Of a stretch of 64,000 bases of DNA, positions 23,267 to 59,359 are shown in pieces. The notes beneath the pieces were generated by a model. That model was not told where the DNA came from and ran no database searches. It saw nothing but the letters and a program-made list of their open reading frames with translations. The stretch spans positions 130,727-194,726 of the forward strand of contig CAWEYP010000019.1 in assembly GCA_963813305.1 (NCBI GenBank). The letters run 5' to 3'. Position numbers and translations under genes: made by a program. The stretch's first letter is position 1. Every line of letters starts with the position of its first letter. This stretch comes from an uncultured Chloroflexia bacterium. Its GTDB lineage: Bacteria; Chloroflexota; Limnocylindria; Limnocylindrales; CSP1-4.

Positions 23267-24501
23267 CTATGCCCGTAGGGACGGCGGCTCGCCCGGCGTT
23301 CCGATTGTCGCCGGGCGACCGGGCTCGCCCGGCACGACGTCGTCGAGGGGCACGTCCACCGGTCCCGGGGCGGCCAGGACGGCGGCGAGCTGGGGCGGGA
23401 TCGGGTCGACCGAGTCCCAGTCGACCGGCAGCCGGACCCGGATCGCATCGGGGTCGATGGAGGCCGCGCGGGCGCCGTTGGCGGGGTCGACCGACCACTC
23501 CATGGCCACGGCGCCCGACGTGAAGCCGGCCCCGAAGGCGACGAAGACGATCCGGTCGCCGACCTTGATCCGGCCGCTGTCGACGGCCTCGGCCAGGGCC
23601 AGCGGGACCGACGCGGCCGAGGTGTTCCCGTAGCGGTCGACGTTGACGAAGATCTTCTCCATCGGGAAGTCGAGGCCCTTGGCGACGGCCTCGATGATCC
23701 GGATGTTCGCCTGGTGCGGGATGACCAGGTCGATGTCGTCGGGGTGGAGGCCGGCCCGCTCGATGGCCGCCAGCGCGGAGGAGGCCAGCGTCTTCGTCGC
23801 GAAGCGGTAGGTCTCCTTGCCCTCCATCCGGATGAAGTGCTCGCCGCGGGCCACCGTCTCCGCCGACGAGGGGCTCTTCGAGCCGCCGGCCGGCAGCCAG
23901 ATCATGTAGGCGCCCTGGGGGTCGGTCGTCAGCTCGATCCCGTGCGGCCCGGTCGGCTCGTCGGAGGCCGAGACGACCACCGCCCCGGCGCCGTCGCCGA
24001 ACAGGATGCACGTGCCCCGGTCGGTGTAGTCGAGGAAGCGGGTCAGGAGCTCGGCGCCGATGACCAGCACGTGGCGGGCCATGCCCGAGGTCACGTAGGC
24101 GTGGGCGGTAGCGTAGGCGTAGACGAACCCGGAACAGGCCGCGGCGACGTCCATGGCCGCCGCCCGCGTGTTCCCGATCGCCTCCTTGACGAGCGCCGCG
24201 GTGGACGGCATCCAGTAGTCCGGCGTGAGCGTCGCGACGAGGATCAGGTCGATCTCGTCCGGCTCGATCCCCGCGACGGCGATCGCCCGCGCCCCGGCCA
24301 CCGCCGCCATCGAGGCGGTGGTCTCGTGGGCGGCCGCCACGTGCCGCTCGCGGATCCCGGTGCGGGTCACGATCCACTCGTCGTTGGTGTCCACCATCCG
24401 CTCGAGATCGGCGTTCGTGAGGACGGCGGCGGGGGCGTAGTTGCCCCAGCCGCTGATGCGGGCCCAGCGCCCCGCGGGGGGCGTGCGGAGGGGACGGTCA
24501 C
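23267..24501 (-). CDS. fabH: Beta-ketoacyl-ACP synthase III (indel near 24480)
   Basis: VLTNADLERMVDTNDEWIVTRTGIRER, AACSGF, ILFGDGAGA, PHQANIRII and YGNTSAAS. Confidence 0.95.
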
Positions 24502-25112
24502 AGTGGCTCCACCTCGATGAGCGGGTGCTTCGCCTTGACCAGGGTGCCGTTCTCCGCCACGACGCGGACGACCCGGCCCGGACTTGTCGGACTTGATCTC
24601 GTTGAAGAGCTTCATGGCCTCGATGAGCCCGATCACCTGGCCGGCGACCACCTCGCGCCCGACGGCGACGAAGGGCGGCGACCCGGGGCTGGGCGAGGCG
24701 TAGAAGATCCCGGTCAGCGGGGCCAGCACCGCCGTTCGCGCGGAGCTCGCCGCCTCGCCCGCCGCGGTCGCGGCCGCAGCCGCCGTCCCGGCGGCCGGGG
24801 CGGCTCCAGCGGGATCGGCGGCGGCCGGCGGGGCCCCCGGGCCCGCGGCCGGCGGGAGCGCGCCCAGCGCGGCGGCCTTGCGGAGGACGATCCCCGTGCC
24901 GCCGGCCTCGACCTCCAGCTCGAGGAGGTCGCTCCGCTCGAGGAGGCCCGCGAGGCGGTCCACGAGGGCGAGCAGCGAGGCGTCGGCCGCGGGGAGGGAC
25001 GCCGCGACGGCGCGGGAGGGGCTGGTCGGCGGCGAGGGCCAGGTCGCGGTGCCTCCGCCGCGGGCGCGCCGGGCGCTTCGATGCCGGGATCGCGGGCGAG
25101 GTCGTCGGTCAT
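24498..25112 (-). CDS. accB: Biotin carboxyl carrier protein (indels near 25030 and 24580)
   Basis: APLTGIFYASPSPGSPPFV...GLIEAMKLFNEI, with the biotinylated Lys and thumb loop present. Confidence 0.92.
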
Positions 25113-26377
25113 TCGTCCCACCGGGTGAAGACGAGGGCGCTGTTCTGGCCCCCGAAGCCGAACGAGCTGCTCACGGCGACCCGGATCGGTCGCTCGCGGG
25201 CGACGTTGGGGGTCAGGTCCAGCCCGGCGGCGGCGTCGTCCGGGTCGTCCAGGTTGATCGTCGGCGGGATGATGCCGTGGCGCAGGCTCAGGATCGTGGC
25301 CGCCGCCTCGATCGAGCCGGCCGCGCCCAGGGTGTGGCCCAGCATGCTCTTGTTGGCGGTCACGCTGACCTCGCCGGCGCGGGCGCCGAAGAGCCCGCGC
25401 AGCATCTCCAGCTCGGTGCGGTCGCCCTCCGGGGTCGACGTGGCGTGGGCGTTCACGTGCTCCACGTCGTCGAGGGGGATCCCGGCCTTCTCCAGCGCGC
25501 GCCGGATCGCCCGGATCGCCCCGATCCCGCCGGGCGCCGGGAGCGTGATGTGGTTGGCGTCCGCCGAGGCCCCGTAGCCCACCAGCTCGGCCAGCACGAC
25601 CGCGCCGCGAGCCCGCGCGTGCTCGAGGTCCTCCAGGATCACGACGCCGGCTCCCTCGCCGATGACGAAGCCGTCGCGGCCCCGGTCGAAGGGTCGCGAG
25701 GCGGCGGCCGGGTCGTCGTTGCGGGTGGAGAGGGCGCGCATCGCGGCGAAGCCGCCGACGAGCGCCTCGGTGATGCCCGCCTCGGACGAGCCCGCGATCA
25801 TCATGTCGGCGTCGCCGCGGCGGATGATCTCCCAGGCCTCGCCCAGGGCGTGGCCGCCGGTGGCGCAGGCCGAGGAGACCGCGAAGTTCGGCCCGAGCGC
25901 CCCGAAGACGATGGCGGCCTGGCCGGCCGCCAGGTTCGGGATCGCCATCGGGATGAAGAACGGGCTGATCCGGTCCGGGCCCCGCTGGATGTCGATCGTC
26001 ACCTGCTCGGCGAACGTCGTGCCGCCCCCGATCCCCGTCCCGAGGAGGATCCCCGTGCGCTCCGCGAGCTCGCCGTCGAGCCGCTCGGGAAGGCCCGCCT
26101 GGGCCATCGCCTCGTGGGTCGCGACCAGGGCGAGCTGGGTGTAGCGGTCGTTGCGGCGCTGCTCCTTGCGGTCGAGGACGACGGACGGATCGAAGTCCGG
26201 CACCTCGCCCCCGATCTGCGAGGCGACGCGGGCCGGGTCGAAGGCGGTGATCCGCCGGATCCCCGAGCGCCCGGCGACCAGCCCGTCCCAGGTCGAGGCG
26301 ACATCCACCCCGAGGGCGGTCACGAGGCCCAGCCCGGTGACGACGACCCGCCGGTCGGCGCCGCCCCCGCCGGTCAT
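25109..26377 (-). CDS. fabF: Beta-ketoacyl-ACP synthase II
   Basis: RVVVTGLG, SSACATG, NAHATST, KSMLGHTLGAAG and SFGFGGQN. Confidence 0.95.
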   Translation of the reverse strand: MTGGGGADRRVVVTGLGLVTALGVDVASTWDGLVAGRSGIRRITAFDPARVASQIGGEVPDFDPSVVLDRKEQRRNDRYTQLALVATHEAMAQAGLPERLDGELAERTGILLGTGIGGGTTFAEQVTIDIQRGPDRISPFFIPMAIPNLAAGQAAIVFGALGPNFAVSSACATGGHALGEAWEIIRRGDADMMIAGSSEAGITEALVGGFAAMRALSTRNDDPAAASRPFDRGRDGFVIGEGAGVVILEDLEHARARGAVVLAELVGYGASADANHITLPAPGGIGAIRAIRRALEKAGIPLDDVEHVNAHATSTPEGDRTELEMLRGLFGARAGEVSVTANKSMLGHTLGAAGSIEAAATILSLRHGIIPPTINLDDPDDAAAGLDLTPNVARERPIRVAVSSSFGFGGQNSALVFTRWDE

Positions 26378-27120
26378 CGAACGAGCTTCCCCGTCCTGAT
26401 CGTCGCCGCGCGATAGACGTCGCCGGGGAGCCCGCGGTCGGCGACCGCGTCGGCGGCCGCCAGGGCGTCGAACTCGGTCCGCTTGATCTCGGCGGTCACG
26501 CTGCCGTCCACGACGTCGATCAGCGCCCACGAGGCGGTCGCGTCGCCGTCGAAGACGTAGCCCGCGCTGCCGCTGTTGACGATCATCTTCCAGCCGAAGT
26601 CGCGGACCTCCGGGACGTGGGTGTGGCCGCAGCAGATCACCCGCGCATCGGTCCGCCCCAGGCGATCCACGATGACGCTCTCGTCGAGGCCGCGGTCGAA
26701 GCCGGCGGTCTGCGACCCGGGCGACGCGTGGGTCACCAGCACCAGCGTGCCGTCGTCGCAGCGGACCCGCCGCTCGGCCGGGAGGCGGCGCAGCCAGTCG
26801 ACCCGCTCCGGGCCGAGGGCGTCGTGGGCCCACTCGGCGGCCGCCTTGAACGACTCGGGCACGCCGTCGCCGAGCCACGGGAACGCCGCCCCGTAGTCGA
26901 AGTCGGCCACCGCGATGTCGGTGTTGCCCTGGACCACGAGGGCGCCGGCCGCCTCGAGCTCGCGGATCCCGTCGACCGTCGCTGCCGGGTCGCCGCCGTT
27001 GAAGGCCAGGTCGCCGGCGATGGCGATCACGTCCGGGGACGCGGCGGCCACGGCCTCGCGCACGGCGGCCAGGGCCTGGGCCACCCCGTGGACGTCGGAG
27101 AAGAGCGCGATCCGGGTCAT
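26374..27120 (-). CDS. Calcineurin-like metallophosphoesterase, YfcE-like
   Basis: SDVHG, GDL, GNTD, THAS and GHTH motifs. Confidence 0.9.
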   Translation of the reverse strand: MTRIALFSDVHGVAQALAAVREAVAAASPDVIAIAGDLAFNGGDPAATVDGIRELEAAGALVVQGNTDIAVADFDYGAAFPWLGDGVPESFKAAAEWAHDALGPERVDWLRRLPAERRVRCDDGTLVLVTHASPGSQTAGFDRGLDESVIVDRLGRTDARVICCGHTHVPEVRDFGWKMIVNSGSAGYVFDGDATASWALIDVVDGSVTAEIKRTEFDALAAADAVADRGLPGDVYRAATIRTGKLVR

Positions 27121-27664: not shown

Positions 27665-29029
27665 TCAGGTCCGCGGGGCGAGGAACGCGGCCCCGCCGAC
27701 GCGGTCGATCAGGTTGGTGGTCACCTGCCCGTCGACGAACGCGGCGTTGTCGAGCATGGCACGGTGGAAGGCGCGGTTGGTGATGATGCCGTCGACCACC
27801 AGCTCGTCGAGGGCGGCCCGCCCGCGGGCGATCGCCGCCGCCCGGTCGGGTCCCCAGACGATCAGCTTCCCCAGCAGCGAGTCGTAGTAGGGCGGCACCT
27901 CGTAGCCGGCGTACAGGTGGGAGTCCAGGCGCACGCCGGGTCCGCCCGGGGCGTAGAAGCGCTCCACCGCCCCGGACTGCGGGCGGAAGTCGTGCGCCGC
28001 GTCCTCGGCGTTGATCCGGAACTCGATGGCGTGGCCCCGGAACGTGACGTCCGCCTGGCTGAAGCCCAGCGGCTCGCCGGCCGCGATCCGCAGCTGGGTG
28101 GCGACGAGGTCGATCCCGGTGAGCATCTCCGTCACCGGGTGCTCCACCTGGATCCGGCAGTTGATCTCGATGAAGTAGAAGCTCTGGTCGCGGTCGACCA
28201 GGAACTCCAGGGTGCCGAGGTTCTCGTAGCCGGCCGCCACGACGGCCCGGATGGCGCGCTCGGCGAGCTCCTCGCGGGCGGCCTCGGGGAGCGCCGGCGT
28301 CGGCGCCTCCTCGATGAGCTTCTGGTGCCGGCGCTGGACCGAGCAGTCGCGCTCGCCCAGGTGGACGCCGTGGCCGTAGCGGTCGACGACGACCTGGACC
28401 TCGACGTGGCGGTTGTCCTCCAGCCACTTCTCCAGGTAGAGGGAGTCGTCGCCGAAGGCGGCGCGGGCCTCGGAGCGGCAGACCTGGATCGCCGCCTGCA
28501 GCTCGCGGGCGGTGCGGACCATCCGCATCCCCTTGCCGCCGCCACCCGCCGATGGCTTCAGGAGGACCGGGTAGCCGACCCGCTCGGCCTCGGCGAGGGC
28601 GTGGTCGTCGTCCTGGAGCATCCCCTCGGACCCGGGGATCGTCGGCAGGCCGTGGGACGCGAGGAGTCGGCGGGTCCCCTCCTTCGAGGCGAACCGCTCC
28701 AGCACCTCGGCGGTGGGACCCACGAAGGCGAGCCCGTGGGCCGCGACCGCCTCGGCGAAGCCGGAGTCCTCGGAGAGGAAGCCGTAGCCCGGGTGGATCG
28801 CGTCGCAGCCGGTCACGACCGCGGCCGAGATGATCGCCGACGCCGAGAGGTAGCTCCGCCTGGCATCCGCCGGGCCGATGCAGATCGCCTCGTCCGCCAG
28901 CTGGGCGGCGAGCGAATCGCGGTCGGCCTCGCTGTACGCCAGGACCGCACCGATCCCCAGGGTCCGGCACGCGCGCAGGATGCGCAGCGCGATCTCGCCG
29001 CGGTTGGCGATGAGGACGCGCTCGAACAT
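27665..29029 (-). CDS. accC: Acetyl-CoA carboxylase, biotin carboxylase subunit
   Basis: VLIANRGEIA, HPGYGFLSE, GGGGKGM, RDCSVQRRHQK and NCRIQVEH. Confidence 0.96.
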   Translation of the reverse strand: MFERVLIANRGEIALRILRACRTLGIGAVLAYSEADRDSLAAQLADEAICIGPADARRSYLSASAIISAAVVTGCDAIHPGYGFLSEDSGFAEAVAAHGLAFVGPTAEVLERFASKEGTRRLLASHGLPTIPGSEGMLQDDDHALAEAERVGYPVLLKPSAGGGGKGMRMVRTARELQAAIQVCRSEARAAFGDDSLYLEKWLEDNRHVEVQVVVDRYGHGVHLGERDCSVQRRHQKLIEEAPTPALPEAAREELAERAIRAVVAAGYENLGTLEFLVDRDQSFYFIEINCRIQVEHPVTEMLTGIDLVATQLRIAAGEPLGFSQADVTFRGHAIEFRINAEDAAHDFRPQSGAVERFYAPGGPGVRLDSHLYAGYEVPPYYDSLLGKLIVWGPDRAAAIARGRAALDELVVDGIITNRAFHRAMLDNAAFVDGQVTTNLIDRVGGAAFLAPRT

Positions 29030-29635
29030 CAGCCGCCCTCCCCGTGTGCCGTCGCCGAGGCGCCCAGCAGCTCGATCTCGACGACCTGCTGGCCGTACTC
29101 CACGGGGTCGCCGGGCTCGACGAGCGTGGCCCCGACGAGGCCGTCGGCGGGCGCCACCACCTCCTGCGGGACGCCCAGGACGTCGACCGTCCCGAGGCGA
29201 TCGCCGGCCCGCACGCGGGCGCCGGCCGCGAGGTCGGAGCGCGGCCGGAAGAACCCGACCGCCGGCGACGTCGCCACGGCGCGCGTCGGCGCCTCTTCCG
29301 GGTCGGCTCCCGCCGCCGGTCCCGGCGAGCCGCTGGCGTGGGACCCCGGGCCGTGGGCAGCTCCGCCGGGTCCCGCGTGCCCCAGGGTCGAGGCGTGCGA
29401 CTCGGCGCGGCCCGGCCCCCGGGCCTGGCGTCGTCCGCCGAACGCCGCGGCCGTCGCCGGGCATGCGCAGCCGGACACGCCAGCCTCCCTCGCGCACGTC
29501 GAGCTCGCCGAGCCCGCTCGCGCCGAGCTTCGCGACGAGCGCCGGCAGCAGCTCGTCCGCGAGGCGATCGATGGCGGCATGGTCGGCGCGCCGCTCGTCG
29601 GGCGTGCGCTCGGGCGCGGCGTCGTGATGGGTCAC
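29029..29635 (-). CDS. BCCP-like protein lacking the biotinylation lysine (indel near 29450)
   Basis: BCCP-type N-terminus (LGASGLGELDVREGGWRVRL) and biotinyl-lipoyl domain SPAVGFF...GDRLGTVDVLGVPQEVVAPADG...VEYGQQVVEI. DVLGV replaces EAMKL. Confidence 0.85.
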
Positions 29636-29638
29636 CGA

Positions 29639-30661
29639 TCAGACCTCCTCTCGCGCCGGGGGCTCGTCGCGGCTCTCGCGCCCGTCGCGCGCTCCAAGGC
29701 CGCCAAGCGTCTTGCCGCCAGCTTCGATGGCACGGCGCAGGCGGTCGGCGAGCCCCTGGCGCTCGGCGGCCTCCGGGACCTCCGGGCCGCCCAGGTCGTC
29801 GAACGCCCCGAAGTCGCGGTAGCGACCCAGGCGCGCCGCCAGCAGCTCGTCGACGGGCATCGCGCCCAGCCGGTCCAGCTGCTCGACGATCACGGCCCTG
29901 AGGCGCCGCGCCGTCTCGGCCGGGTCGGTGTGGGCGCCGTCACCCGGCTCGGGGACCACCCGGTCGACCACGCCGAGCTCCAGCTGGTCAGCGGCCGTCA
30001 TTCGCATCGCCAGCGCCGCGTCGGGCGCCTTCTCGCTGGTGCGCCACAGGATCGACGCGCAGCCCTCGGGGCTGATCACGGAGTAGACGGCATTCTCCAG
30101 GGCGACCACGACGTCGCCGGAGGCGATGGCGAGCGCACCGCCCGAGCCGCCCTCGCCGGTGATGAGGGTCACGATGGGAACGCGGATCCGGCACATGACC
30201 ATGATCGCGTTGGCGATCGCGTCGGCGATGCCGCGCTCCTCGGCCTCCGCGCCGGGATAGGCGCCCGGCGTGTCGACGAAGGTGACGACGGGGATGCCGA
30301 AGCGGTCGGCCAGCTCGAACAGGCGGATCGCCTTGCGGAGCCCTTCCGGCTTCGCCATCCCGAAGTTGCGCCGGATGTTCTCGTCGGTGTCGGCGCCCTT
30401 CTGGTGGCCGACGACCACGACCCGCCGGCCGTCGATCCGGCCCAGCCCGCCCACGATCGCCCCGTCGTCGCCGAAGAGACGGTCGCCGTGGAGCTCGGTG
30501 AAGCCGTCGGCGATCCCGGCGACGAGCTCCAGGGTGTGCGGCCGGCGCGCGTTGCGGGCCAGCAGGACGCGGGCCCAGACCGCGTCGCGCGGATCCGCGG
30601 GCGGCCCGGGTGCCGGCGCGGGCTCGCGCTCCTTCGTCCGGCCGAGGAGCCGGTCAACCAC
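29639..30661 (-). CDS. accA: Acetyl-CoA carboxylase carboxyltransferase alpha subunit
   Basis: ELHGDRLFGDD, NFGMAKPEG.RKA, DTPGAYPG, GEGGSGGAL and YSVISPEGCASILW. Confidence 0.96.
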   Translation of the reverse strand: MVDRLLGRTKEREPAPAPGPPADPRDAVWARVLLARNARRPHTLELVAGIADGFTELHGDRLFGDDGAIVGGLGRIDGRRVVVVGHQKGADTDENIRRNFGMAKPEGLRKAIRLFELADRFGIPVVTFVDTPGAYPGAEAEERGIADAIANAIMVMCRIRVPIVTLITGEGGSGGALAIASGDVVVALENAVYSVISPEGCASILWRTSEKAPDAALAMRMTAADQLELGVVDRVVPEPGDGAHTDPAETARRLRAVIVEQLDRLGAMPVDELLAARLGRYRDFGAFDDLGGPEVPEAAERQGLADRLRRAIEAGGKTLGGLGARDGRESRDEPPAREEV

Positions 30662-31520
30662 GGCGCACGCTCCCGGCGACAGCCTCGGCCGGCGCCGGCG
30701 GGCCCAGCACGTCGAGGATCGCGGCCAGCTCGTCGCGCAGCTCGGCCCGCGCCGCGATCCGGTCCACGAAGCCGTGCTCGATGAGGAACTCGGCGCGCTG
30801 GAACCCGGGCGGCAGCTCCTCGGCGATCGTCCCGGCGGAGACCCGGGCCCCGGCGAACCCGATCAGGGCGTTCGGCTCGGCCACGTTCACGTCGCCCAGC
30901 GCCGCGAAGGAGGCGAAGACGCCGCCGGTGGTCGGATCGGCCATGACCGAGATGTACGGGATGCCCGCCGCCCGCAGCGCCCCGAGGGCGGCGATCGTCT
31001 TCACGAGCTGCATCAGGGCCAGGGTGCCCTCCTGCATCCGGGCCCCGCCCGAGGCGCTGACGACGACGAGGGGGATCCCTTCCGCGAGCGCGCCCTCGGC
31101 GGCCCGCGTCACCTTCTCCCCGACCACCGATCCCATCGACCCGCCCATGAACGTGAAGTCGAGGGCGCAGATCGCGACGCGGCGGCCGGCGAGGGAGCCG
31201 AAGCCCCAGATCGCGGCGTCGCGCCGGCCGGTCGCCGTCTGGGCCGCCACCAGGCGGTCGCGGTACGGCTTGCTGTCGACGAAGCCGAGCGGGTCGCGGG
31301 ACACGAGGCCGGGATCCTGCTCGCGGAAGGTCCCCGGGTCCAGGAGCTGGGCGAGGCGCGCCGGGGCCGAGATGCGGAAGTGGTGGCCGCACGACGGGCA
31401 GACCCGGAGCGCCTTGTCGAGGTGCTTGTTGAAGAGCATCTCGCTGCAGCCGGGGCACTGCGTCCACAGGTCCGGCGGGTAGCTCTCCCGGCGCGGCCGG
31501 AAGGGCAGCGTGATCGGCAT
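30654..31520 (-). CDS. accD: Acetyl-CoA carboxylase carboxyltransferase beta subunit
   Basis: Zn finger CPGC...CPSC, FMGGSMG, SGGARMQEG, PTTGGVFASFA and FQRAEFL. Confidence 0.96.
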   Translation of the reverse strand: MPITLPFRPRRESYPPDLWTQCPGCSEMLFNKHLDKALRVCPSCGHHFRISAPARLAQLLDPGTFREQDPGLVSRDPLGFVDSKPYRDRLVAAQTATGRRDAAIWGFGSLAGRRVAICALDFTFMGGSMGSVVGEKVTRAAEGALAEGIPLVVVSASGGARMQEGTLALMQLVKTIAALGALRAAGIPYISVMADPTTGGVFASFAALGDVNVAEPNALIGFAGARVSAGTIAEELPPGFQRAEFLIEHGFVDRIAARAELRDELAAILDVLGPPAPAEAVAGSVRRG

Positions 31521-32125
31521 CAGGCGAGGCCCCCGGGGAAGGCGTCGCGCCCGGCCCGCGCGGCACGCGCGAGACGGACGGCGCGGGCCATCGGGTCGGT
31601 CGGGGCGCCCCGCGTGAGGCGCCACGCGACGAAGGCGGCGCCCGCCAGGCTGAGGGCGGCGGAGGTGACGGCGCCGCCGACCAGGAGCGGGCGGTGGGCG
31701 GGCTGGCCGGTCGAGACGCGGGACCTCCCGCCGGGACCGTCGGCGGCGGCCCCGGCCGCATCGGCCGGCTCCCCGAGGAGCGCCGCCAGCTCGGGGTTGG
31801 CGAGCTCCTCGGCGAGGACGCCGTCGCCCAGGAGCGGGGCCGGGAACGGGATGACCGTCGCGTCGCCGCCGGACGCCGCGGCCAGGCGCATGCCGGCGGC
31901 AGCCTCCGCCAGGCGGCGCGCCAGGCGCTCCTCGAAGCGGAAGGACGGGTGGACCCGCACCAGCTCGTCGCGGAGCCGTCGCGCGGCGCTCCGGAGCGCC
32001 GGGTCGAGGGCCGGGTCGGCGGGAGCGTCGGGCGCGCCGCGCTCGGCGGCGACCAGGAGCGCCTCGAGGTAGCGGTCGGTGACGAGCGCCTCGACCTCGA
32101 TGGCCTCGAGGGCCGTGGCGCTCAC
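31520..32125 (-). CDS. Hypothetical protein, probable anti-sigma factor with one C-terminal TM
   Basis: Coupled to the ECF gene (GTGA). Helical N-terminus with HPSFRFEERLARRL and a TM segment LLVGGAVTSAALSLAGAAFVAW. Confidence 0.6.
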   Translation of the reverse strand: MSATALEAIEVEALVTDRYLEALLVAAERGAPDAPADPALDPALRSAARRLRDELVRVHPSFRFEERLARRLAEAAAGMRLAAASGGDATVIPFPAPLLGDGVLAEELANPELAALLGEPADAAGAAADGPGGRSRVSTGQPAHRPLLVGGAVTSAALSLAGAAFVAWRLTRGAPTDPMARAVRLARAARAGRDAFPGGLA

Positions 32126-32764: not shown

Positions 32765-33619
32765 TTACACGCCGACGGCAGCGTCGGCCGGCGGCGCGCT
32801 CGCCAGACGCACGTGGGTCACGTCGCCGGCGTGGATCGCCCGCTCGCCGCCGGGGACCGACGCATCCGCCACCAGGAGCGCCCCAGTCGCCGGATCGAGG
32901 CCCAGTGCGCGCGCCTCGACGGGCTCGCCACCGTGCTCCTCGAGGCGGACGATCCGGCCCGTGGTGATCTGGCGGACCGTCCAGTCGTCGATGGCAAAGT
33001 AGCCGGCACGCAGCGCCTCGACGCGCGCCTCCAGGCGGCCCAGGAAGCCGTCGAGGAGGATTGCCCGGTCGATCGGCCGGCCGCCGGACGCTTCGGCGAG
33101 GCTGGTCATCTGTGGGGCGAGCTCCGGCGGGAAGTCACGGCGGTCCCAGCCGGCGTTGACGCCGATCCCGACGATGACCCGCGGGTCGCCCGTCCCCAGG
33201 CCGTCGGCCTCGCCTAGGACGCCGCCCAGCTTGCGGATCGGGCCGCCGCCGAGGCCGGTCCCTTCGTGCTCCGGGGCGTCCGCCTCCATCACGAGGTCGT
33301 TGGGCCACTTGAGCCGGACGGCGTGATCGCGAAGCCCCGCGGCGTCCTCGGCCGCGTCGGCCATCGCCAGGCTCACCACGGCGGCCAGGCGCCAGGCGTG
33401 GCCGGGCTCGAGCCAGGTCGGCCGGAAGCCGAGCGACAGGAGGAGCGCGACGCCCGGCGGGGCGGTCCAGGTCCGGCCGGCGCGCCCCCGGCCCGCGGTC
33501 TGCTCGTCGGCGACGGAAAGGCAGACCTCCGGGGTGCCGGTGGCGAGCCACGCCCGGACCGCGTCGTTGGTCGACTCGATCCGGTCGAACCGTTCCTGCC
33601 GGGCGAGGAATGCCGTCAC
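32765..33619 (-). CDS. birA: Biotin-[acetyl-CoA carboxylase] ligase, no N-terminal HTH
   Basis: STND, ADEQTAGRGRAGRTW, LKWPND, RKLGGVL and VGIGVN. Confidence 0.93.
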   Translation of the reverse strand: MTAFLARQERFDRIESTNDAVRAWLATGTPEVCLSVADEQTAGRGRAGRTWTAPPGVALLLSLGFRPTWLEPGHAWRLAAVVSLAMADAAEDAAGLRDHAVRLKWPNDLVMEADAPEHEGTGLGGGPIRKLGGVLGEADGLGTGDPRVIVGIGVNAGWDRRDFPPELAPQMTSLAEASGGRPIDRAILLDGFLGRLEARVEALRAGYFAIDDWTVRQITTGRIVRLEEHGGEPVEARALGLDPATGALLVADASVPGGERAIHAGDVTHVRLASAPPADAAVGV

Positions 33620-56376: not shown

Positions 56377-57205
56377 TCAACGCACCACGTCGGACGGGGC
56401 GCCCGCCGGGCCCCCGGCGTGCGCGAGGTCGACGCCGAAGACGCTCCGCACCCGCTCGCGCGTCAGCACGGCATCGGGCGGGCCGTCGGCCACGACCCGG
56501 CCGCCATCGAGCACGACGAGGCGCGGGAAGAAGTGGCGCGCCAGCGCCAGGTCGTGGAGGACGGCGAGGATCGTGGTGCCGTCCCGGGCGTTGAGATCGG
56601 CCAGGAGCTCCATGACCGCGACCTGGTGGCGCAGGTCGAGATGGACGGTCGGCTCGTCGAGGACGAGGAGCGGCGCGGCCTGGGCGACCGCCAGCGCCAC
56701 GAGCACGAGCTGGCGTTCGCCGAGGGAGAGCTCGCGGGCGTCGCGGCCGCGGAGCCGGTCGATCCCGACCCGCGAGATCGCCGCGTCGACCGCGGCGAGG
56801 TCCGCGGCGCGCGGGCCCCGGATCGGGTCCTCGTGGGGGAGCCGGCCGAGGGCGACGACCTCCTCGACGCGGGTCGAGAACGGGATGCTCGCCTGGCCGG
56901 GGACCGCCGCGAGGCGGCGGGCGATCGCCGGCCGGTCGAGCGACGCGACGGCGTCGCCTCCGAGCATGACCCGGCCGCTGCGCGGGACCACAAGCCCGGC
57001 CAGGACCCGGAGCAGGGTGGACTTCCCGGCGCCGTTCGGTCCGACCAGGGCGACCCGCTCGCCGGGGGCGATCGCGAGGTCGATGCCGCGCAGGACCGTC
57101 CGGTCGCGGTAGGCCACGACCACGTCCTCGAGGAGCGCGATCGGCGCCGGCCCAGCGGGCGGCCGCACGTCGAGCGCAGGGTTCGCCGCGCACGATCGCG
57201 GTCAC
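56377..57205 (-). CDS. ABC transporter ATPase, FecE/BtuD-like
   Basis: GPNGAGKST, LSLGERQ, LDEPTVHLD and VLHDL. Confidence 0.92.
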
Positions 57206-58281
57206 AGCTCGTACCCGCCGCGCGCCGAGCGCAGGAGGGCCAGGAAGAACGGCGCCCCGATGACGGCGGTCACGACGCCCACCGGGATCTCGCCGAGGAG
57301 GCGCGCCACCAGGTCGGCGGCCACGAGAAGGACGGCGCCCAGGATCGCGCTGAGGGGCAGCACGTTGCGCGCGTTCGGCCCGACGACGAGGCGCACGAGG
57401 TGCGGCGCGACGAGGCCGACGAACCCGATCAGGCCCGACACGGCCACCGCCGCGGCCGTGACGAGCGTGGCCAGGCCGAGCAGGATCCGGCGCTCCCGGC
57501 GGACGTCGATCCCGAGGTGCGCGGCGGCCTCCTCGCCCAGCAGGAGGCCGTTGAGCGACCGGGCCCGGAGCAGGATCGCGATGCTGCCGCCGATCACGAG
57601 CGGGGCCGCGATCGCCGAGGCGCATCCACGAGGCACCCTCGAGGCCGCCGAGCAGGAAGGCGAAGATCTGGCGCAGGTTGGCCCCCGACAGGTACATCGT
57701 CATCGCCAGGCCAGCGGCCAGGAGCGAGCCGACGGCGTAGCCGGTCAGCAGGAGGCCCGTCAGCGGCGCCAGGGGACCGCCGCGTCCCAGGCGATAGACG
57801 ACGGCAACGGCCGCGACCGCGCCGGCGAAGGCGAACACGTTGAGGAGCCCGACCCCGAGGAGCGCGACCCGGACCGGGATGAGCACCGCGATCGCCGCGC
57901 CGAGGGCGGCGCCGGACGCCGTCCCCAGCACGTACGGGTCGGCCAGCGGGTTGCGGAGGAGCCCCTGGAACGTGACGCCGGCGACCGCCAGGCCGGCGCC
58001 GACGACGACCGCCGTGAGGACGCGCGGGAGCCGGAGCTCCGTGACGATCGTCTCGGCGGCCGGGCGTCCACGTCCGCTCGACCGGCAGGCCGATGGCGCG
58101 GAGGAGGATGCCGATCGTGTCCCCGGGCGCGATGGAGACGCTGCCGGCGGCGATCCCGACCACGACCACCGCGGCGAGGACGAGGAGCCCGAGCGACGAC
58201 CAGGACGGCCGGACGGGGCCCGCCGGCGGGGCGCCGGACGCGCACCCGCCCGAGCGCCAGGCTCCGGCCGCCGATCGTCAT
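57202..58281 (-). CDS. FecCD/BtuC-type permease (several indels)
   Basis: LRLPRVL, FQGLLRNPLADPYVLG, LLLGEEAAAHLG, IGFVGLVAPH and EIPVGVVTAVIGAPFFL. Confidence 0.92.
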
Positions 58282-58290
58282 CCCGGTCCC

Positions 58291-59359
58291 CTACCCGCCG
58301 GTCGCCGGCACCGACGGCAGCGGAGCCGCCGGATCGATGGCCAGCGCCAGGGCCCGCAGGCCCTCCGACCAGGCGCGGGCCCGGCCGCGTCACGACCACG
58401 TCGTCGACGGGACGGATCGCGCCGGACTTCACCGCGGTCATGCCGCCCCAGCCGGGACGGGCCGCGACCTGCTCGGCCGTCGCCGCCGTAGGCGGCGTCG
58501 CCGAGGACGATCACCTCGGGATCGGCCGTCGACCAGCGTCTCCAGCGGGATCGAGAAGACCGTCGGGCTGCCGGTCGTGATCGGCTCGCCGCCGGCGAGG
58601 GTGATCATCTCGGCGTACAGCGACTCCGCGGCGGGGCCGTAGATCGTGCCCTGGTACAGGTCGAGCTCGTAGAAGACGCGCGGCCGCGGGCCCCCGGCCG
58701 CCGCGATGCCGCTCGCGATCGCGTCGATGTCGGTCCGCATCGCGCCGGCGAGCTCCGTGCCCGCTGCGCCCTCGCCGGCCGCCGTGGCGACGAGCTCGAT
58801 GTCCGCGAGGACGGTCGCCACGTCGGGCGCGTAGACGACGAGCACCGGGATCCCGACCGAGCGGAGCTTCGTGAGCGCCTCCGGGCTGTTGAAGCCGTTG
58901 CCGCCGGCGAGGACGAGGTCGGCTTCGAGGCCGACGATCTTCTCGACGTCGATCGCGCCCTGGGTCGACCACGCGGGTGATCGCCTTGGCCGCGGCGGGG
59001 TGGTCGTCGGCGTCCGTGGCGCCGACGACGCGATCCCCGGCACCGACGGCAAAGAGGATCTCGGTCGTGGCGGGCGTCAGCGAGACGATCCGCGCCGGCC
59101 GGGCCGGCAGGGTGACCGCCGTCCCCTCGTCGTCGGTGAGGGTCATCGGGTAGGTCGCCGCCGCGGGGGTGACGGACGGCGTCGGGGTCGCGGTCGCGGC
59201 GGGAGTGGCGGTGGCGGCGGGAGTGGCGGTCGTGGCCGGCGACGTCGTCGCGGCACCGCCGCACCCGGCCAGCATGGTGAGGGCCACGACGAGCGCGACG
59301 AGGGTCGCGATCGCGGGCGGAGTGGCGGCGCGGGCGCGCCGGGACGGGAAGTGACGCAT
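58291..59359 (-). CDS. Cobalamin-binding lipoprotein, BtuF-like (indels)
   Basis: Lipobox LAGC, YPMTLTDDEG, RIVSLTPATTEILFAVG, DVEKIV and RPGPR. Lies downstream of a B12 riboswitch. Confidence 0.88.

Follow-up and report, generated by a model that had tools for sequence, protein, structure and literature searches.

The 64-kb stretch of DNA analysed here (the window; 64,000 nucleotides, 73% GC) belongs to the genome, G000, of an uncultured bacterium of the class Limnocylindria (phylum Chloroflexota). Between accA and accC, two genes of acetyl-CoA carboxylase (ACC), it carries a gene for a paralog of the biotin carboxyl carrier protein (BCCP) in which the biotinyl-lysine is missing; we call this gene and its product X. 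On balance we favour the view that X is a conserved pseudo-BCCP that would serve as a non-catalytic partner of biotin carboxylase/BCCP and would be convergent with the BADC proteins of plants, an idea first put forward in an earlier note made from the window alone. ACC carries out the committed and tightly controlled step of fatty-acid synthesis and is a target for drugs, herbicides and bio-engineering.

X occupies 29029-29635 on the minus strand, as do the acc and fabF genes around it. Its GTG start (29635) follows the TGA of accA by 3 nucleotides (nt), and a Shine-Dalgarno sequence, AGGAGG, is found at 29644-29649, within the 3' end of accA and 8 nt 5' of the GTG. Translation from this start gives VTHHDAAPERTPDERRADHAAIDRLADELLPALVAKLGASGLGELDVREGGWRVRLRMP, a BCCP-type N-terminal domain whose helix and hairpin (AAIDRLADELLPALVAKLGASGLGELDVREGGWRVRLRMP) map to 29459-29578. 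The frame of the open reading frame (ORF) 29029-29580 supplies a Pro/Ala/Gly linker and then RAVATSPAVGFFRPRSDLAAGARVRAGDRLGTVDVLGVPQEVVAPADGLVGATLVEPGDPVEYGQQVVEIELLG, with the biotinyl-fold domain at 29062-29283, and closes with a TGA (29029-29031) that overlaps the accC ATG (29027-29029) as TGATG. The earlier note had described a second BCCP copy that keeps the N-terminal domain and the biotinyl fold, starts just after accA and overlaps the start of accC, and this description proved accurate on each count.

The feature that sets X apart from a carrier protein is its hairpin, GTVDVLGVPQE (29161-29193). In the hidden Markov model (HMM) alignment to 4HR7_B/1BDO, the Gly of VDVLGV, encoded by GGC at 29173-29175, aligns exactly with Lys122 of E. 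coli BCCP, and the thumb lacks 6 residues that the E. coli protein has; the note had read the same hairpin and a shortened thumb. X nevertheless keeps the G(D/E)PVEYGQ C-terminal motif that is typical of bacterial AccB. Because Gly replaces the biotinyl-lysine and the thumb is truncated, X is predicted to be unable to carry biotin at the canonical site. Biotinylation at another lysine was considered and rejected, since the C-terminal domain has none here and the sole Lys of the whole protein is in VAKLG; the note's statement that the domain lacks Lys altogether is correct for the window but does not extend to the family, in which relatives have Lys elsewhere in this domain. A single read error was likewise rejected as the cause of the loss, in agreement with the note, because the differences extend through the entire hairpin and recur across the family. 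Chance falls far short of explaining the lysine-less state, which is common to all orthologues examined.

The overall fold of X appears to be that of BCCP. Among solved structures, the best match over both domains to a profile built from 14 intact X homologues is E. coli BCCP (4HR7_B, E 1e-11), with six gap positions in the thumb. The AlphaFold2 model of a close homologue, computed from that alignment, consists of a helix (12-40), a hairpin (44-57), a disordered linker (62-116) and a C-terminal beta-sandwich with a predicted local distance difference test score (pLDDT) above 90. In Foldseek comparisons the modelled sandwich matches 1BDO with a template-modelling (TM) score of 0.80 and 36% identity, and the thumbless P. 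horikoshii BCCP more closely (TM 0.87-0.90). The three-part architecture of AccB, with an N-terminal domain, a flexible linker and a biotinyl domain, is found in X. Scores for PF00364 (Biotin_lipoyl) straddle the cut-off of 22.1 bits, at 21.9 in hmmscan of the ORF and 23.7 in a six-frame search of the genome; with the model, a biotinyl/lipoyl barrel-sandwich fold is clearly present. The AccB family model TIGR00531 has a cut-off of 115.2 bits, to be set against 35.9 and 40.0 for intact X orthologues, 28.5 for the C-terminal segment in the window and 104.4 for the true AccB of a relative. X thus descends from BCCP but lacks features that define a functional AccB.

Orthologues of X, sought with the C-terminal domain as query, are present in 19 of 24 same-genus genomes and in 15 of 16 genomes of the sister family, Candidatus Limnocylindrus, whose genomes are about 1.1 Mb. 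Every orthologue hairpin read has [VI][DE]V[LV]G[VI] in place of EAMKM. When the X profile was run against a homologue library of 1.84 billion representatives at 50% identity, 446 matched at E<=1e-10; Gly occupies the lysine position in 146 of the best 150 of these and in all same-class loci read, and the other 4 of the 150 gave no usable hairpin alignment. Public sources name such proteins 'biotin carboxyl carrier protein'. The ratios of nonsynonymous to synonymous substitution (dN/dS, by the Nei-Gojobori method) are 0.13 within the genus and 0.10 within the sister family for the N-terminal domain of X, and 0.25 and 0.14 for its C-terminal domain; the corresponding values for true AccB are 0.26 and 0.08 (N-terminal domain) and 0.13 and 0.12 (C-terminal domain). 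X is therefore under purifying selection, with dN/dS of 0.10-0.25, similar to true accB. Retention of the lysine among orthologues and neutral evolution, two of the outcomes that the earlier note had set against its own proposal, are both contrary to what we find.

The surroundings of X are conserved as well. The accA-X-accC order with its TGATG overlap is kept across the genus and the sister family, the overlap being found at all loci with the stop context read except two 3' run-ons, and in Candidatus Limnocylindrus all 8 of the X loci read are intact single frames. All of the genomes sampled from the family, order and class to which the window belongs have X, and the synteny that the note had suggested searching for persists class-wide in a modified form, birA..accD-accA-X-(fabD)-accC-fabZ-fabF-accB-fabH, seen in two further families of the class. 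A Lys-bearing accB lies about 4.6 kb downstream in all but three of 40 relatives, and each genome with X that was checked also has a Lys-bearing accB. Two variations on the arrangement may be recorded: in Candidatus Limnocylindrus (L021-L028) accD and accA are fused in one frame of about 596 codons directly 5' of X, and in a second family of the class (L122, 5617-6567) a fabD-like gene with a GHSVGE motif is inserted between X and accC, with overlapping stop and start codons on both sides.

We read X as a full-length BCCP paralog with an N-terminal oligomerisation/BC-tethering domain (BC, biotin carboxylase), a flexible linker and a biotinyl-fold domain. It would be made from the accD-accA-X-accC operon in translational coupling with accC, and the real carrier, the Lys-bearing AccB, would be made from fabF-accB-fabH. 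X could then bind biotin carboxylase, AccB or both by the interfaces that BCCP itself uses, and could either scaffold or throttle the enzyme. We infer a non-catalytic subunit from the combination of a missing biotin site, a BCCP N-terminal domain and fold held under selection, the presence of the real carrier, and the stop/start wiring of X, whose stop and start codons overlap or abut accA, fabD or accC in Limnocylindria. X is presumably co-transcribed with accC; the stoichiometric co-production that the earlier note had drawn from the overlap is a possibility only. X might promote assembly or compete with holo-BCCP.

Several points weigh against this reading. The TIGR00531 scores, far under the cut-off, imply a large divergence from functional AccB. 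The expression of X, its lack of biotin, its binding to AccC/AccB and any effect on ACC activity are predictions drawn from sequence. The plant literature disagrees on whether BADC inhibits or assembles (PMC11926652), so that the analogy does not fix a mechanism for X. Finally, X is not an open frame in the deposited assembly, and linkage to ACC genes is not universal among lysine-less BCCPs; these last two points bear on particular alternatives and are taken up with them.

The X interval is 607 nt long, which is not divisible by 3, and its N- and C-terminal domains are in different frames. What the earlier note had observed thus stands for the domains, the hairpin and the synteny, but not for a single open frame in the sequence as assembled. 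The 5' segment (29429-29635), comprising the GTG start, the N-terminal domain and the beginning of the linker, matches intact orthologues and is in frame A, shared with accC; the 3' segment (29029-29415), comprising the Pro/Ala/Gly linker, the biotinyl-fold domain, a short tail and the TGA, is in frame B. Relative to the homologues P0036 and P0012, homology in frame A stops at ...RRTT and homology in frame B starts at (P/R)GPGRAESHAS, and the intact P0036 reads ...RLRMPGDGRGARRAAAAGRGPGRMEPHAS.... This comparison points to one excess base in X at 29416-29428, a G/C-only site at or beside a C5 run (29416-29420 on the plus strand), and the codon-position GC pattern moves by +1 between the two segments at the same site.

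We consider it likely that this one-base break is an assembly indel. The canonical accB (24498-25112; EAMKL at 24607-24621, with a full thumb), which the note had correctly identified, is itself frame-broken in the assembly. After EAMKLFNEIKSDKSG, the conserved ending RVVRVVAENGTLVKAKHPLIEVEPL (the last 25 codons) sits in the +1 frame; two relatives have one base fewer at about 24579-24581, and where the window reads TCCGGGCCGGG, the same-genus genome G004 has TCGGGCCGGG, with the following 30 nt identical. The accB ATG (25112) overlaps the fabF stop as ATGA and fits the MTDE start of relatives, the window's own start being MTDD. Since the frame of this start differs from that of the N-terminal domain, a second break is to be expected in the Pro/Ala-rich 5' part of accB, probably near 25000-25060. 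An indel in X is favoured because the presumably essential accB is broken likewise by one extra base with its downstream codons identical; because both X segments keep all family-invariant residues, free of internal stops and with coding GC periodicity on both sides of the break; and because other genomes of the genus show breaks of other types. Among 20 same-genus X loci, 14 are single intact frames and 6 are broken: the window, G004 and G006 have the two domains in different frames, X is fused with accA in G020, and its 3' end runs on into accC in G017 and G018. Most of the broken loci come from few-contig, low-completeness assemblies. In G004 (95% complete, 9 contigs), comparison with the window and G007 reveals single-base indels, at the equivalents of window positions 25611, 26184 and 26819, which affect fabF and the adjoining metallophosphoesterase gene. 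The same-genus records are 'MFD...bin' metagenome-assembled genomes (MAGs), and the Microflora Danica samples, the subject of a deep Nanopore survey, are the source of such MAGs (PMC12313526). Long-read MAGs of this genus do carry frame errors in essential genes.

If the extra base were real, X would be a genuine and very recent pseudogene in this strain, yielding either no product or only the N-terminal domain, which would be joined fortuitously to the accC frame. We regard this as unlikely. Beyond the break itself, it draws on the rpoB gene of the same genome, one intact frame of 1183 codons, which indicates that indel errors are not everywhere in this genome, and on the small number of other breaks that stringent comparisons of the window with two relatives flagged. 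Those comparisons mainly exposed indels in G004, not in the window; a frame comparison filtered by GC at third codon positions tested 12 genes and found none broken; and lists of indels from blastn consisted mostly of compensating alignment artefacts, with the isolated extra base at about 24580 the only clean case. A tblastn search of all stop-to-stop ORFs of the two relatives against the window was too noisy for frame changes, because in a sequence of 73% GC all frames are open and all show conservation of the DNA. The rpoC gene (G000 contig C18:35-448) is cut after about 138 codons by the contig end and its remainder was not found elsewhere in the G000 assembly, so that part of the incompleteness of this genome, which is 56% complete, reflects real missing sequence. 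As gauges of the assembly error rate, rpoB and rpoC do not settle the matter. The considerations that favour an indel are at the same time those that speak against a pseudogene, among them the parallel break in accB and the lack of decay in either segment, and they are joined by the purifying selection acting on the X family.

A different alternative is that X has a job unrelated to ACC, its location in the Limnocylindria acc operon being secondary. In a sample of 400 Chloroflexota genomes, the best matches to X in other classes are of two kinds, lysine-less BCCPs and ordinary Lys-bearing BCCPs. The lysine-less proteins (L113-L116, L099-L111, L224) have N, M, S, R or G at the site and, unlike X, retain a long thumb. 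Of the 9 other-class lysine-less loci, 7 come immediately after pepP-efp and have no acc gene closer than 5 kb; such a homologue follows pepP-efp in seven other Chloroflexota families, and the Limnocylindria genes nest inside this efp-linked group in the tree described below. Linkage to ACC is thus not universal. Nevertheless, efp-accB is the ordinary bacterial place of a true accB, so that this context carries no separate functional signal, and Lys-bearing efp-linked accB genes are present in sister families. In Limnocylindria the stop and start codons that couple X to accA, fabD or accC overlap or nearly abut, and the most constrained part of X is the BCCP N-terminal domain, which has no known role outside ACC. 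We therefore think a function apart from ACC rather improbable. The slot after pepP-efp that the lysine-less genes occupy may be described as the classical efp-accB slot with a dead carrier.

The distribution of the two kinds of gene across the phylum suggests how a non-catalytic BCCP could have arisen. All 8 of the other-class genomes with a lysine-less BCCP that were checked have a Lys-bearing accB between fabF and fabH, and in the genomes checked phylum-wide lysine-less BCCPs occur only together with a fabF-linked accB. In 9 genomes with a Lys-bearing efp-type accB, no second stand-alone BCCP was found at E<=1e-6; among the Lys-bearing loci checked for neighbours, 3 of 5 follow efp. The fabF-accB-fabH arrangement itself (L123-L130 and window 23267-26401) is kept in at least 8 Chloroflexota families. 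In a maximum-likelihood tree of the N- and C-terminal domains (119 columns, composed of bacterial sequences with no plant sequences included), the fabF-linked clade is recovered at 100/99, and the lysine-less proteins all group together with support (96/68) that is not strong. X arises among Chloroflexota AccBs, nested with the other Limnocylindria genes among the efp-linked lysine-less proteins; the lysine-less group is sister to the fabF-linked clade, and Lys-bearing efp-linked genes lie outside both. With few columns and long branches among the lysine-less rows, the tree should be taken as a lead rather than a result.

The simplest reading of this pattern is duplication, takeover of the carrier function and then loss of the lysine. 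An ancestral efp-linked accB would have been duplicated, and the fabF-linked copy would have taken over biotin carriage. The original efp-linked copy would then have lost its lysine, yet survived. A stronger version, in which this happened in much of Chloroflexota, the lysine was lost possibly only once, and the lysine-less copy was kept under selection as an obligatory fifth, non-catalytic subunit of ACC and moved into the accD-accA-accC operon in Limnocylindria, can be offered only tentatively, and we hold it to be possible rather than probable.

Two further explanations take the assembled sequence at face value. The frame of the GTG at 29635 stays open into accC, forming a 656-codon ORF (27665-29635) that might be read as a biotin carboxylase with an N-terminal BCCP-like extension; this is very improbable, since the roughly 150 codons between the N-terminal domain and AccC are Arg-rich, have the wrong codon-position GC and are not protein-like, the conserved biotinyl-fold domain lies in the other frame, and intact relatives have two genes with the TGATG overlap. 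As assembled, the 656-codon ORF is a spurious product of the frame break. Programmed +1 ribosomal frameshifting joining the halves of X, to which the need of both BCCP genes in the window for a +1 shift might point, deserves almost no credence: most orthologues are single frames, including those in 3 of the 4 most complete same-genus genomes read, the site has no stop or rare-codon pause, and the shift site is conserved in no close relative seen, the breaks elsewhere differing in kind.

The remaining genes of the cluster complete the setting of X. The run of genes for ACC and fatty-acid synthesis starts with birA (32765-33619), which is separated by an ECF sigma/anti-sigma pair from accD (30654-31625; carboxyltransferase beta with a Zn ribbon, PF01039 and PF17848). 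The latter overlaps by 8 nt with accA (29639-30661; carboxyltransferase alpha, PF03255, E 9e-113). Downstream of X, accC (27665-29029; biotin carboxylase, PF02786, PF00289 and PF02785) is followed by fabZ, by a metallophosphoesterase-like ORF (26374-27120; DVHG...GNTD...GHTH) and by fabF (25109-26401, with an approximate start), which together with fabH (23267-24397) flanks the Lys-bearing accB. The metallophosphoesterase-like ORF, placed between fabZ and fabF, has a counterpart in both compared relatives, G004 and G007. Elsewhere in the window, at 57200-58650 on the minus strand, a single 587-codon frame of G004 matches the DNA in pieces that alternate between frames, with about six single-base differences at 57615-58528; the cause may be clustered indel errors or decay of the gene.

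The pseudo-BCCP reading of X has implications beyond this phylum. BADC look-alikes have been regarded as an innovation of plants, and it is disputed whether they act as inhibitors or as assembly factors. A conserved and selected bacterial counterpart encoded beside its would-be partners would, if the reading is true, mean that the solution evolved more than once, and that BADC-type control of ACC arose independently in bacteria, where recombinant bacterial proteins would make it simple to study. Reconstitution of a four- or five-protein system in E. coli could then settle the effect of a lysine-less carrier on biotin carboxylase. In the meantime, the public label of X-type proteins overstates their abilities. 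New in this analysis are the frame breaks, the comparison of dN/dS with true accB, the efp-linked lysine-less genes, the strict co-occurrence with fabF-linked accB, and the tree.

Among known systems, the closest to X in sequence and fold is AccB/BCCP itself (E. coli; 1BDO, 4HR7; TIGR00531), with which X shares the N-terminal helix-hairpin, a Pro/Ala linker, the biotinyl beta-sandwich and a place directly upstream of accC. It differs in having Gly for the biotinyl-lysine of (E)(A/V)MK(M/L), a thumb 6 residues shorter and a score far below the TIGR00531 cut-off, and in coexisting with a separate Lys-bearing AccB. That protein, the fabF-linked AccB of Chloroflexota (24498-25112 in the window), has the same architecture as X in the same genome and belongs to a sister clade, but it retains both EAMK and the full thumb, its C-terminal motif is a different one, LVKAKHPLIEVEPL, and its biotinyl domain is more conserved than that of X (dN/dS 0.13 versus 0.25). 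The actinobacterial epsilon 'glue' subunits AccE/PccE offer a likeness of another sort, as small proteins with no catalytic role of their own that bring about the assembly or activation of a biotin carboxylase complex, a property that for X is proposed only. To our knowledge these subunits are unrelated to X in sequence or fold and are not BCCP-derived. They have been cited as a bacterial parallel to BADC (PMC11926652).

A further comparison is with the BADC proteins of plants and green algae (Arabidopsis BADC1-3), homologues of BCCP in plastid ACCase that carry no biotin, which bind BC and BCCP and have been described as inhibitors or as assembly 'glue' (PMC11926652). A 2025 paper calls BADC 'unique to the plant htACCase' (PMC11926652), a search of the literature for a bacterial lysine-less BCCP found no report, and a 2024 study of Chloroflexus ACC describes only a fused BC-BCCP that keeps EAMKM (PMC11077971). 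BADC and X are both BCCP paralogs that lack the AMKL motif, occur together with true BCCP and have a genetic link to ACC; in contrast to BADC, X is bacterial, operon-encoded and arises among Chloroflexota AccBs in the tree. The earlier note's proposal of a bacterial analogue is partly supported in that X is lysine-less, conserved, under selection and encoded beside a true BCCP, with the qualification that what emerges is an analogue and not a demonstrated member of the BADC family. The grouping of X with efp- and fabF-linked BCCPs of Chloroflexota points to an origin independent of BADC. In other words, X matches BADC in every respect that sequence can test, and is probably an analogue of independent origin.

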